From Escherichia coli (GTDB lineage Bacteria; Pseudomonadota; Gammaproteobacteria; Enterobacterales; Enterobacteriaceae): 64,000 bases of DNA. The notes beneath the pieces are model-generated. The model had not been told where the DNA came from. It searched no databases and was given only the letters and a program-made list of their open reading frames with translations. Made by a program: the position numbers and the translations under genes. This document shows, one piece after another, positions 16,493 to 37,097 of this stretch; the stretch's first letter is position 1; every line of letters starts with the position of its first letter. The DNA lies in NCBI RefSeq assembly GCF_046105845.1, contig NZ_CP151004.1. One strand, written 5' to 3'.

Positions 16493-18238
16493 ATGATAAA
16501 ACCGACGTTTTTACGCCGGGTGGCCATTGCTGCTCTGTTCACAGGAAGTTGTTTTAGTACGGTAGCCGCGCCACCTGCGCCGTCTCCTGTTTCTTACGGC
16601 GTGGAGGAAGATGTCTTTCATCCGGTACGCGCGAAACAGGGGATGGTGGCGTCTGTAGATGCTACTGCCACTCAGGTGGGGGTGGATATCCTCAAGGAGG
16701 GCGGGAATGCCGTTGATGCCGCCGTGGCTGTGGGCTACGCGCTGGCGGTAACGCATCCGCAGGCAGGGAATCTGGGCGGTGGTGGTTTTATGCTGATCCG
16801 CTCGAAAAATGGCAATACCACTGCTATCGATTTCCGCGAAATGGCACCCGCCAAAGCGACCCGCGATATGTTCCTTGATGATCAGGGTAACCCGGACAGC
16901 AAAAAATCACTCACTTCGCATCTGGCTTCTGGTACGCCCGGTACGGTAGCAGGTTTCTCGCTGGCGTTGGATAAATACGGCACCATGCCGTTGAACAAAG
17001 TGGTGCAACCGGCGTTTAAACTGGCACGCGATGGTTTTATCGTTAACGACGCGTTGGCTGACGATCTCAAAACCTACGGTAGCGAAGTGCTGCCGAATCA
17101 CGAAAACAGCAAGGCTATCTTCTGGAAAGAGGGCGCGCCGCTGAAAAAGGGCGACAAGCTGGTGCAGGCGAACCTGGCAAAGAGCCTGGAGATGATTGCC
17201 GAAAACGGCCCGGACGAATTCTACAAAGGCACGATAGCGGAACAGATTGCCCAGGAGATGCAGAAAAACGGTGGCTTGATCACTAAAGAAGATTTAGCGG
17301 CGTATAAAGCGGTCGAGCGCACACCAATAAGCGGCGATTATCGCGGGTATCAGGTTTACTCCATGCCACCGCCATCTTCCGGCGGGATTCATATCGTGCA
17401 GATCCTCAATATCCTGGAAAACTTCGATATGCAGAAATACGGCTTTGGCAGCGCCGATGCGATGCAAGTCATGGCAGAAGCGGAGAAATACGCCTACGCC
17501 GACCGCTCGGAATATCTTGGCGACCCGGATTTTGTCAAAGTCCCGTGGCAGGCGCTGACCAATAAAGCCTATGCCAAATCTATTGCCGATCAAATCGATA
17601 TCAATAAAGCGAAGCCATCCAGCGAAATTCGCCCCGGCAAGCTTGCGCCTTATGAGAGTAATCAAACTACCCATTACTCAGTGGTGGATAAAGACGGCAA
17701 CGCGGTAGCGGTGACCTATACGCTGAACACCACCTTCGGTACGGGCATTGTCGCGGGTGATAGCGGTATTCTGCTTAATAACCAGATGGATGATTTCTCC
17801 GCCAAACCTGGCGTACCGAACGTTTACGGGCTGGTGGGCGGTGACGCCAACGCGGTCGGGCCGAATAAACGCCCGCTGTCGTCGATGTCCCCAACCATTG
17901 TGGTGAAAGACGGTAAAACCTGGCTGGTTACCGGTAGCCCTGGCGGGAGCCGGATTATCACCACCGTGCTGCAAATGGTAGTGAATAGTATCGATTATGG
18001 CATGAACGTCGCCGAAGCGACCAATGCGCCGCGTTTCCACCATCAGTGGTTGCCGGACGAGCTGCGTGTCGAAAAAGGGTTTAGCCCGGATACGATCAAG
18101 CTGCTGGAAGCAAAAGGTCAGAAAGTGGCGCTGAAAGAGGCGATGGGTAGTACACAAAGCATTATGGTTGGGCCTGACGGTGAGCTGTACGGTGCATCTG
18201 ACCCGCGCTCGGTAGATGATTTAACGGCGGGGTATTAA
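16493..18238 (+). CDS. ggt: Gamma-glutamyltranspeptidase
   Basis: 581 aa from ATG 16493 (MIKPTFLRR...). Signal peptide. Autoprocessing site and nucleophile context NQTTHYSVVD, GGG motif. Confidence 0.95.
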   Translation: MIKPTFLRRVAIAALFTGSCFSTVAAPPAPSPVSYGVEEDVFHPVRAKQGMVASVDATATQVGVDILKEGGNAVDAAVAVGYALAVTHPQAGNLGGGGFMLIRSKNGNTTAIDFREMAPAKATRDMFLDDQGNPDSKKSLTSHLASGTPGTVAGFSLALDKYGTMPLNKVVQPAFKLARDGFIVNDALADDLKTYGSEVLPNHENSKAIFWKEGAPLKKGDKLVQANLAKSLEMIAENGPDEFYKGTIAEQIAQEMQKNGGLITKEDLAAYKAVERTPISGDYRGYQVYSMPPPSSGGIHIVQILNILENFDMQKYGFGSADAMQVMAEAEKYAYADRSEYLGDPDFVKVPWQALTNKAYAKSIADQIDINKAKPSSEIRPGKLAPYESNQTTHYSVVDKDGNAVAVTYTLNTTFGTGIVAGDSGILLNNQMDDFSAKPGVPNVYGLVGGDANAVGPNKRPLSSMSPTIVVKDGKTWLVTGSPGGSRIITTVLQMVVNSIDYGMNVAEATNAPRFHHQWLPDELRVEKGFSPDTIKLLEAKGQKVALKEAMGSTQSIMVGPDGELYGASDPRSVDDLTAGY

Positions 18239-18242
18239 TATC

Positions 18243-18273
18243 TTAAGCCCTCTCCCGATAGGCGAGGGCTTAA
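18243..18273. terminator. Hairpin between convergent ggt and yhhY (probable bidirectional terminator)
   Basis: aagccctc ... gagggctt inverted repeat within a 60-bp convergent intergenic gap. Confidence 0.5.
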
Positions 18274-18298
18274 ATGACAAACTTAGATTGCAAATTCT

Positions 18299-18787
18299 CT
18301 ATTTCACCCGCGCCATATAATACGCATCGACATATTCACCATTACGTAATGCGTACTTCTTGCCAGTCCCTTCAATCTCAAAGCCGAATTTTTTATAGAC
18401 CTTAATTGCTGGCGCGTTATCGACGAACACCGTTAGCTCAATACGATCTACCCGCAACCAGTTGTCGCACATTTCAATCATCTCTCGCATCAGGGCGCTG
18501 GCGACGCCGCGATTCTTCCAACGGGAGTCGACACAAATACCAAAATCGGCAACATGACTGCGGCGTGGGCGCTGTTGCACGTCAATGGTGAGGTGACCCA
18601 CGACGGTTCCATCAATACAGGCAACTAACTGTTTGATGCCGGGACGATCGGCGAGTCGCTCCTGCCACATATGATCGGAAGGATGAGGCACCTGTAGTGT
18701 GTTGCAATACACCTCCGGCTGGGCGTGAATCTGCCTGATGGCCTCGTAATCGCGCGTTTCAGCATGGCGTATCACTATCTCACTCAT
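18299..18787 (-). CDS. yhhY: GNAT family N-acetyltransferase YhhY
   Basis: 162 aa from the internal start MSEIVIRH. GNAT motifs RRSHVADFGICV and RGVASALM. Confidence 0.9.
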   Translation of the reverse strand: MSEIVIRHAETRDYEAIRQIHAQPEVYCNTLQVPHPSDHMWQERLADRPGIKQLVACIDGTVVGHLTIDVQQRPRRSHVADFGICVDSRWKNRGVASALMREMIEMCDNWLRVDRIELTVFVDNAPAIKVYKKFGFEIEGTGKKYALRNGEYVDAYYMARVK

Positions 18788-18883
18788 TCCTTTGTCCTCT
18801 TTGGGGTAAATGTCCCTTTCAACATCATTGACTTTCCAATGCGAGTCAAATGCATTTTTTTGCAAAAAGTGTTGGACAAGTGC

Positions 18884-18906
18884 GAATGAGAATGATTATT
18901 ATTGTC
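18884..18906 (+). promoter_or_regulatory. Fur box overlapping the ryhB promoter
   Basis: gaatgagaatgattattattgtc matches the GATAATGATAATCATTATC Fur consensus and lies immediately upstream of the ryhB transcription start. Confidence 0.75.
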
Positions 18907-18908
18907 TC

Positions 18909-18998
18909 GCGATCAGGAAGACCCTCGCGGAGAACCTGAAAGCACGACATTGCTCACATTGCTTCCAGTATTACTTAGCCAGCCGGGTGCTGGCTTTT
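18909..18998 (+). ncRNA. ryhB: Iron-responsive small RNA RyhB
   Basis: The stretch gcgatcaggaagaccctcgcggagaacctgaaagcacgacattgctcacattgcttccagtattacttagccagccgggtgctggcttttttt is the RyhB sequence, ending in its terminator hairpin. It sits between yhhY and yhhX as in E. coli. Confidence 0.9.
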
Positions 18999-19119
18999 TT
19001 TTGATCTTTCGTTTTCAATTTATCCACGGGAAGTGCTTGTGTTCGTTATGCGCACTCCAGTAGGAACCACGTCCGCTTTGCGCTAAGGTGTAAATAATCA
19101 CCTTAAAAAGGACGAAATC

Positions 19120-20157
19120 ATGGTCATCAACTGCGCCTTTATTGGCTTCGGCAAAAGCACCACCCGTTACCATCTGCCGTATGTACTTAACCGCAAGGAT
19201 AGCTGGCATGTCGCGCATATTTTTCGCCGCCATGCGAAGCCGGAAGAACAGGCCCCCATTTACTCTCATATCCATTTCACCAGCGATCTCGACGAAGTAC
19301 TAAACGATCCCGATGTTAAGCTGGTTGTGGTCTGCACCCATGCAGACAGCCACTTCGAGTACGCGAAGCGCGCGCTGGAAGCCGGGAAAAATGTGCTGGT
19401 CGAAAAACCGTTCACCCCGACGCTTGCCCAGGCGAAGGAGCTGTTTGCGCTGGCGAAAAGCAAAGGACTGACCGTCACGCCGTATCAGAATCGTCGTTTT
19501 GACTCCTGCTTCCTGACAGCGAAAAAAGCGATTGAAAGTGGCAAGTTGGGAGAGATTGTCGAAGTGGAAAGCCATTTTGACTATTACCGCCCGGTGGCAG
19601 AAACCAAACCTGGGCTGCCGCAGGATGGCGCGTTTTATGGCCTTGGTGTGCATACGATGGACCAGATTATTTCTCTGTTCGGTCGCCCGGATCACGTCGC
19701 TTATGACATCCGCAGCCTGCGTAATAAAGCCAATCCTGACGACACCTTTGAAGCGCAGCTGTTTTATGGCGACCTGAAAGCCATCGTCAAAACCAGCCAT
19801 CTGGTGAAAATCGATTATCCGAAATTTATCGTTCACGGTAAGAAAGGTTCGTTTATTAAATACGGTATCGACCAGCAGGAAACCAGTCTCAAGGCTAATA
19901 TTATGCCGGGCGAACCGGGATTCGCAGCGGATGATTCGGTCGGTGTGCTGGAGTATGTCAATGACGAGGGTGTGACGGTCAGAGAAGAGATGAAGCCGGA
20001 GATGGGCGATTACGGGCGCGTTTATGATGCGTTGTATCAAACCATCACCAACGGTGCGCCAAATTACGTCAAGGAATCTGAAGTTCTTACCAATCTGGAA
20101 ATCCTTGAACGCGGATTTGAGCAAGCCTCTCCCTCCACAGTGACTCTCGCGAAGTAA
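19120..20157 (+). CDS. yhhX: Gfo/Idh/MocA family NAD(P)-dependent oxidoreductase YhhX
   Basis: 345 aa. N-terminal Rossmann motif AFIGFGKS. Confidence 0.92.
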   Translation: MVINCAFIGFGKSTTRYHLPYVLNRKDSWHVAHIFRRHAKPEEQAPIYSHIHFTSDLDEVLNDPDVKLVVVCTHADSHFEYAKRALEAGKNVLVEKPFTPTLAQAKELFALAKSKGLTVTPYQNRRFDSCFLTAKKAIESGKLGEIVEVESHFDYYRPVAETKPGLPQDGAFYGLGVHTMDQIISLFGRPDHVAYDIRSLRNKANPDDTFEAQLFYGDLKAIVKTSHLVKIDYPKFIVHGKKGSFIKYGIDQQETSLKANIMPGEPGFAADDSVGVLEYVNDEGVTVREEMKPEMGDYGRVYDALYQTITNGAPNYVKESEVLTNLEILERGFEQASPSTVTLAK

Positions 20158-35856: not shown

Positions 35857-36272
35857 TATCAGATAAACGATATGTCATGACAATTTACAGACAGCATCGA
35901 TATATAATTCATATTTATTAATTTTTAATAATGATTCTCATCTGAGTATGTATCATACAATAAGCATTATAAATAACCAATAAATTATTTATTATATTTA
36001 TATATTGCCCCACTCTTCAGTTATCCTGTCTAAAATAAATCTCTTTGTTTTCAAATGACTGTATTTTTATATAAAGTCAATCATTGCGAGCATGGATTCT
36101 TTTAGTTATATTACCAAGCAGCTCATATAATATTTTCAAGCCATTCTATCTCTTATTTTTTCTGTGGTTAACTACACCAGCTTTATTCATTTAAATAATT
36201 TGACTTATTAAAGCTGAATGTAAAAATAATCGCCAATATTGCTTGGATTTTTTAACAAAAGGAAAGGTATAA

Positions 36273-36977
36273 ATGAAATTCAATCTATCTAATTTATCAG
36301 CAGTTTTACTCGCATCAGGTATGCTGATGTCAACTGCGGTAACCGCTGCGCCAGGCGATGCATCACAATTTGGTGGTGCGGATACAGACTGGAGCACCGT
36401 TGATTATCCAAAACTCACCGATATGGATAACAACACCGATGCGATGGGCGGAAACATCCGCTTTACTGGTCGTGTGGTTAAAGCGACGTGTAAGGTTGCT
36501 ACAGAATCGAAACAGATTGAAGTGGTACTGCCAGTCGTACCTTCTAACGCTTTCACGGGCATTGATACCGAAGCAACGGGCGCCAGTAACCAGACTGACT
36601 TCAACATTAAACTGACTGATTGTAGCAATACGGACAGTCAAAACATTGAATTTCGTTTTACTGGCGTAGCAGACGGTGCCAACCAGACGCTTGCCAATGA
36701 AGTGGAAGGAGCTACTGATGCTGATGGTACTGGCGAAGCGGGAGCTACAGGTGTAGGGATTCGTATTTATTCTAAAAACACGACAACTGATGGCCTGATT
36801 AAACTGAACACACAAACTCCCCAGGGGAGTAGTTCTTCAGCAGCCTACGTGATTCCTGGCGATGCTGCCACTCATGATTTTACTGCGGCATTTACCGCGG
36901 GCTATGCTCAGAACGGTAGTACCGTTGCACCAGGTCTGGTGAAATCGACGGCAAGTTTCGTCGTGCTGTACGAATAA
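36273..36977 (+). CDS. Fimbrial major subunit candidate (type-1/FimA-like pilin family, atypically long)
   Basis: 234 aa with signal peptide. Conserved pilin Cys pair (ATCKV ... LTDCSN). C-terminal beta-strand ASFVVLYE typical of chaperone-usher subunits. Strong SD AAGGAAAGG. First gene of the fimbrial island. Confidence 0.85.
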   Translation: MKFNLSNLSAVLLASGMLMSTAVTAAPGDASQFGGADTDWSTVDYPKLTDMDNNTDAMGGNIRFTGRVVKATCKVATESKQIEVVLPVVPSNAFTGIDTEATGASNQTDFNIKLTDCSNTDSQNIEFRFTGVADGANQTLANEVEGATDADGTGEAGATGVGIRIYSKNTTTDGLIKLNTQTPQGSSSSAAYVIPGDAATHDFTAAFTAGYAQNGSTVAPGLVKSTASFVVLYE

Positions 36978-36989
36978 TTACAGCAAGAT

Positions 36990-37023
36990 AATTTCAGGTT
37001 ACAGTTACTTGTAACCTGAAATT
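36990..37023 (+). terminator. Perfect 14-bp stem-loop after the major subunit gene (probable intra-operon attenuator)
   Basis: aatttcaggttaca-gttact-tgtaacctgaaatt, 12 nt after the stop codon. No strong U-tract follows, so partial termination or a stability element is more likely than a full terminator. Confidence 0.6.
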
Positions 37024-37097
37024 AATATTACATGTTTATTTGTAATAAATAGACATGCATCAGTAATTACAATTAATTTCATCTACAAGGATGCAGT

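Follow-up and report, generated by a model that had tools for sequence, protein, structure and literature searches.

The Fur-box-bearing ryhB small RNA locus between yhhY and yhhX in a 64-kb Escherichia coli chromosomal window

The stretch of DNA analysed here (the window) comprises 64,000 nucleotides of the E. coli assembly GCF_046105845.1 and is an ordinary Escherichia chromosomal segment. Its gene order runs ftsYEX, rpoH, liv, ugp, ggt, yhhY, ryhB, yhhX, yhhW, gntRKU, asd, glg, a fimbrial operon, glpD, glpEG, rtc, and the mal and gntT region. As shown in Table 1, the interval between the N-acetyltransferase gene yhhY and the oxidoreductase gene yhhX holds a promoter, a Fur box, the RyhB small RNA gene and a Rho-independent terminator. 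The first-pass annotation, made from the letters alone, had placed a RyhB locus with a Fur-box promoter and terminator at 18872-19002, and all three elements were found there. Its start coordinate is one base ahead of the -35 hexamer, and its end coordinate coincides both with the end of the Rfam match and with the annotated 3′ end of the K-12 gene. The position between yhhY and yhhX is given alike by the gene calls, by the K-12 record and by the literature (PMC2189734, PMC3423075).

Table 1. Features of the ryhB locus and its neighbours (window coordinates)
Feature	Coordinates	Strand	Remarks
yhhY (N-acetyltransferase)	18299-18787	-	divergent from ryhB
-35 hexamer TGGACA	18873-18878	+	sigma-70 consensus scan; identical to K-12
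Fur box GAGAATGATTATTATTGTC	18888-18906	.	19 bp; 16/19 matches to consensus GATAATGATAATCATTATC
-10 hexamer TATTAT	18897-18902	+	6 nt upstream of start at 18909
RyhB small RNA gene	18909-19002	+	94 nt; extent per K-12 b4451 (95 nt in K-12)
Predicted 5′ stem-loop (GCGA...UCGC)	18909-18928	+	in both minimum-free-energy and centroid folds; outside Rfam model
27-nt core, target-pairing (seed) region GCACGACATTGCTCACATTGCTTCCAG	18942-18968	+	identical to K-12
Seed nonamer GACAUUGCU	18946-18954	+	RyhB nt 38-46; perfect complement of K-12 sodB AGCAAUGUC, spanning AUG
U/A-rich single-stranded linker UAUUACUU	18969-18976	+	unpaired in Rfam consensus and predicted fold; precedes terminator
Rho-independent terminator	18977-19002	+	hairpin 18977-18995; T8 run 18995-19002
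yhhX (oxidoreductase)	19120-20157	+	starts 117 nt downstream of ryhB terminator, same strand

We evaluated the identity of the locus with an Rfam 15 scan, in which RF00057 (RyhB) matched the plus strand at 18938-19002 with 83.1 bits against a gathering score of 55 (E = 3.6e-14). The alignment spans model positions 1-67 of 67 and is thus complete, although the model itself leaves out the 5′ third of the RyhB RNA; the 5′ end at 18909 was taken from the alignment with the K-12 annotation. A poor covariance-model score had been named beforehand as grounds for abandoning the assignment, and the score obtained lies 28 bits above the gathering score. This is the single RyhB match in the 64-kb window. 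When 18700-19200 was rescanned on both strands at E ≤ 1, no family besides RyhB was returned. PrrF1 and PrrF2 of Pseudomonas, Fur-repressed small RNAs that repress the mRNAs of iron-using proteins, are functional analogues of RyhB. They belong to a different RNA family, and in the same rescan RyhB alone matched the region.

Comparison with E. coli K-12 MG1655 then allowed the extent of the gene to be defined. In that strain ryhB (b4451; formerly sraI) is annotated as an ncRNA at 3580922-3581016 on the minus strand, which aligns to 18909-19002 of the window. Promoter and Fur box are identical between the two, as are the start site, 5′ stem-loop, seed, linker and terminator stem. Within the gene they differ solely in the tail, which is T8 in the window and T9 in K-12; E. 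coli PCN033 likewise has a T8 tail. Both neighbours, yhhY and yhhX, lie in the same relative orientation as in K-12. The far side of yhhY differs, being occupied by ggt in the window and by yhhZ in K-12. The end of ggt and the 3′ end of yhhY are 60 nt apart (18238-18299), whereas MG1655 has yhhZ directly past yhhY. Since ggt adjoins yhhY here, the yhhZ segment of K-12 is absent; PCN033 and strain 1190 lack it too.

Upstream of the gene, the two sigma-70-like hexamers are separated by an 18-nt spacer and together match 10 of the 12 consensus positions. By consensus scan no other sigma-70-like promoter was found in 18700-19200; a weak promoter, or one that departs from the consensus, would be missed by such a scan. 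The Fur box lies across the -10 hexamer, and its end falls 3 nt short of the start site. At three mismatches to GATAATGATAATCATTATC it is the sole site in the 64-kb window, while shuffled sequences give 0.01 sites per window. A Fur box lying over a -10 hexamer in this way is the usual arrangement for repression by occlusion. Fur binding to the identical site of K-12, a 25.2-bit cluster located at -15 relative to the ryhB start, has been demonstrated by gel shift (PMC2189734).

We further evaluated the conservation of the promoter between genera. In a promoter alignment (A3) it is conserved, but because this alignment was pre-filtered on ATGATTATTATT, the invariance of its -10 and Fur-box columns is partly circular. 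The fairer test is a scan made without such filtering, over the 300 nt that precede each of 123 core copies. Only three copies lacked a Fur-box-like site with five mismatches or fewer, and in most of the 123 the best site lies approximately 50-72 nt ahead of the core.

The same Fur-controlled promoter might also contribute to the neighbouring genes, either through read-through of the terminator into yhhX or through Fur occupancy on the divergent yhhY promoter. This is speculation that we regard as improbable. It was raised because no other consensus promoter was found in 18700-19200 and because an early in vivo Fur-titration fragment from the ryhB region was at first assigned to yhhX (PMC2189734). 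Between the ryhB terminator and yhhX there is a second, weaker terminator-like hairpin at 19025-19041 on the plus strand, with 6 pairs, 3 of them G-C, and the tail TTCGTTATGC. Two terminator-like sites were found in all, against 0.8 ± 1.0 in shuffled sequences, and the hairpin at 19025-19041 may be a chance occurrence.

Within the RNA, the terminator stem has 7 pairs in the terminator scan, 5 of them G-C. We aligned 79 distinct short-form homologs and counted the pairs expected from the Rfam structure. Across these homologs 98.2% of the cells in the terminator helix pair, and three of the seven pairs are changed on both sides (one, for example, is A-U in 66, C-G in 9 and G-C in 4). The Rfam structure scores far above versions in which the partners were shifted by 1-3 columns. 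The pairs of the seed hairpin are invariant in the same 79 homologs and so are uninformative on structure, an invariance that comes partly from the way in which the loci were selected.

The 5′ third of the RNA, to which the predicted stem-loop belongs, differs between genera in both sequence and length, with insertions and deletions. The linker UAUUACUU would, by analogy with the element described in PMC6191717, be the UA-rich sequence bound by the Hfq rim. When the fold of the whole RNA was compared with those of shuffled sequences its stability was no greater (z = -0.59). Thermodynamics alone would thus not single out RyhB, and the fold was not used as evidence.

We also considered whether the interval encodes a small protein, or a dual-function transcript, rather than a purely non-coding RNA. 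Two mechanically called open reading frames overlap it on the plus strand, one at 18810-19004 (64 aa) and the other at 18902-19063 (53 aa, with a TTG start). Both, however, begin upstream of the start at 18909 and run 2 and 61 nt, respectively, beyond the last T of the terminator, and ATG is absent from the transcribed sequence. Conservation peaks in the unpaired seed and has no codon-like pattern, and the insertions and deletions between genera fall in the 5′ part. From the extents of the frames relative to the transcript and the lack of an ATG, coding potential was rejected, and we consider a protein-coding reading of the interval to be extremely improbable.

The seed region was compared both with K-12, to which it is identical, and across species. 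The seed-region conservation that the first-pass annotation had proposed to examine is borne out: the exact 27-nt core occurs in at least 120 gammaproteobacterial loci, distributed over Enterobacterales, Aeromonas, Photobacterium, Aliivibrio, Salinivibrio and Zobellella. These cross-species loci were gathered by exact core match. Core invariance in the resulting alignment (A2) is therefore circular, and weight is given to the breadth of taxa alone.

We also weighed whether the window carries a RyhB paralogue, of the RyhB-2 or IsrE type, in place of the orthologue. Many genera of Enterobacterales have two unlinked exact-core loci, among them Yersinia, Photorhabdus, Serratia, Pantoea, Pectobacterium and Hafnia, and Klebsiella has its ryhB-2 elsewhere in its genome (PMC3415461). 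Such paralogues have the exact 27-nt core and a Fur-box-like promoter in common with the window copy (PMC3415461), but they occupy other chromosomal sites and have a different 5′ part and terminator. The window, in contrast, contains just one Rfam RyhB match, the median in E. coli is one copy per genome, and the copy, identical to K-12 b4451, is the one in the orthologous interval between yhhY and yhhX. Synteny and identity together refute the paralogue reading, to which we assign a negligible probability, and the window copy is read as the orthologue between yhhX and yhhY.

The RyhB loci of Vibrionaceae (Photobacterium, Aliivibrio and Salinivibrio) likewise contain the exact core, with a Fur-box-like site approximately 60-71 nt upstream. 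They are without a terminator directly after the core, which fits a longer RNA in these organisms, whereas the window holds the short enterobacterial form. Tandem pairs of the exact core, approximately 307 nt apart on the same strand, were observed at two loci, L082 (10920-11253, a Salinivibrio costicola contig) and L086 (11695-12027). Each copy in these pairs has its own Fur-box-like site 63 nt upstream.

We evaluated target recognition using sodB. The sodB sequence was that of K-12, the strain's own gene lying outside the window. The core formed a duplex with positions -25 to +15 of sodB at -18.0 kcal/mol, compared with -7.85 ± 2.6 kcal/mol for shuffled targets, and 2 of 1000 shuffles equalled it. 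A duplexfold of full-length RyhB against 90 nt of sodB gave an unrealistic end-to-end duplex and was set aside in favour of the core against the translation-initiation region.

For the window copy we propose a mechanism whose steps are drawn from experimental work on K-12 ryhB, the sequence of which is identical. When iron is present, Fe2+-Fur would occupy the Fur box and block RNA polymerase; Fe2+-Fur is known to repress ryhB (PMC12533949). On iron depletion, Fur would leave the ryhB promoter and an RNA of approximately 90 nt would be produced, which Hfq is expected to contact at the U-tail and at the U/A-rich linker. RyhB belongs to the class I Hfq-binding small RNAs, with its poly(U) tail on the proximal face and a UA-rich element on the rim (PMC6191717), and the window has sequences corresponding to both, the U-tail and the UAUUACUU linker. 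Through its single-stranded core RyhB would then base-pair at the translation-initiation regions of messages encoding non-essential iron proteins, sodB, sdhCDAB and isc/suf among them. Under iron starvation RyhB pairs with and represses such mRNAs in what is termed the Fe-sparing response, its targets including the isc and suf operons (PMC12533949). Translation of the target would be stopped, and RyhB and its target would be degraded together by RNase E, as has been described for RyhB after pairing (PMC6191717).

We next evaluated how widely the locus is distributed in the species. Of 5426 complete E. coli genomes, 5424 contain the 131-base interval 18872-19002, in every case on the chromosome, and 5413 of these have it at 99% identity or more. 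The 1.3 kb around ryhB is mostly 95-99% identical among E. coli genomes, and the small RNA gene is thus more constrained than its flanks. Conservation above the level of the flanks indicates purifying selection on ryhB.

These comparisons also bear on the proposal that the sequence has no function in the GCF_046105845.1 strain, being either a relic that is silent or a resemblance that arose by chance. The unremarkable fold energy is in keeping with this proposal. The E-value of the Rfam match nevertheless excludes chance, and the promoter, Fur box, seed and terminator are intact and identical to those of the functional K-12 gene. Of the 5424 genomes with the interval, moreover, 5413 keep it at 99% identity or above, against 95-99% for the flanks. 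Taken together, these points leave the relic or chance reading with hardly any probability.

No evidence contradicting an orthologous ryhB was met in the course of the analysis. We are almost certain that 18872-19002 constitutes the orthologous ryhB locus of E. coli, encoding a Fur-repressed, Hfq-dependent, trans-acting small RNA of the iron-sparing response. Expression, Fur dependence and Hfq binding are ascribed to the GCF_046105845.1 strain through its sequence identity to K-12.

The first-pass annotation had described the element as known rather than novel, and had held that an annotation built only on open reading frames would miss it. The match to K-12 ryhB agrees with the former: the RyhB copy in the window is already known, and neither its position nor its sequence is unusual. 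RyhB is among the best-characterised bacterial small RNAs, and a textbook sequence of this kind is of small discovery value. The latter held for every non-K-12 record inspected. Seven RefSeq E. coli records, those of PCN033 and strain 1190 together with five sampled ones, all list no feature over the ryhB interval, and among the records inspected only that of curated K-12 has an ncRNA ryhB. There is thus an annotation gap, in which a gene found in 5424 of 5426 genomes has no feature in the seven RefSeq records inspected. The locus is also useful as a positive control, being a non-coding gene that was recognised from raw sequence with accurate boundaries.

Elsewhere in the window, the ES036 (CssrF) small RNA family, RF02751, matched the plus strand at 43843-43885 with 46.8 bits against a gathering score of 37.6 (E = 2.3e-6). 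It is the window's second Rfam match above gathering, with a chaperone-usher fimbrial operon on one side and the 3′ end of glpD on the other, and by eye its immediate flanks resemble REP-type palindromes (gccggatgcg... and ...gtaggcctgataagcgtagcgcatcaggc). The match may represent an expressed RNA or no more than part of a repeat. The fimbrial operon itself comprises seven genes at approximately 36270-43465 on the plus strand, between glgP and glpD. Its gene content, taken from the annotation of the colinear strain VCSW5, consists of fimbrial subunits, two chaperones and an usher. At the same site, between glgP and glpD, K-12 presumably retains only a remnant.

Compared with the 5426 complete E. 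coli genomes, the window reached a best identity of only 98.0-99.1%, over segments 14-25 kb long. Different strains gave the best match in different parts, namely SCU-102 and PCN033 over 1-25 kb, AST215 and VCSW5 over 25-50 kb, and VCSW5 over 50-64 kb. Either the source lineage may be poorly represented among these 5426 genomes, or the segment may be a recombination mosaic.
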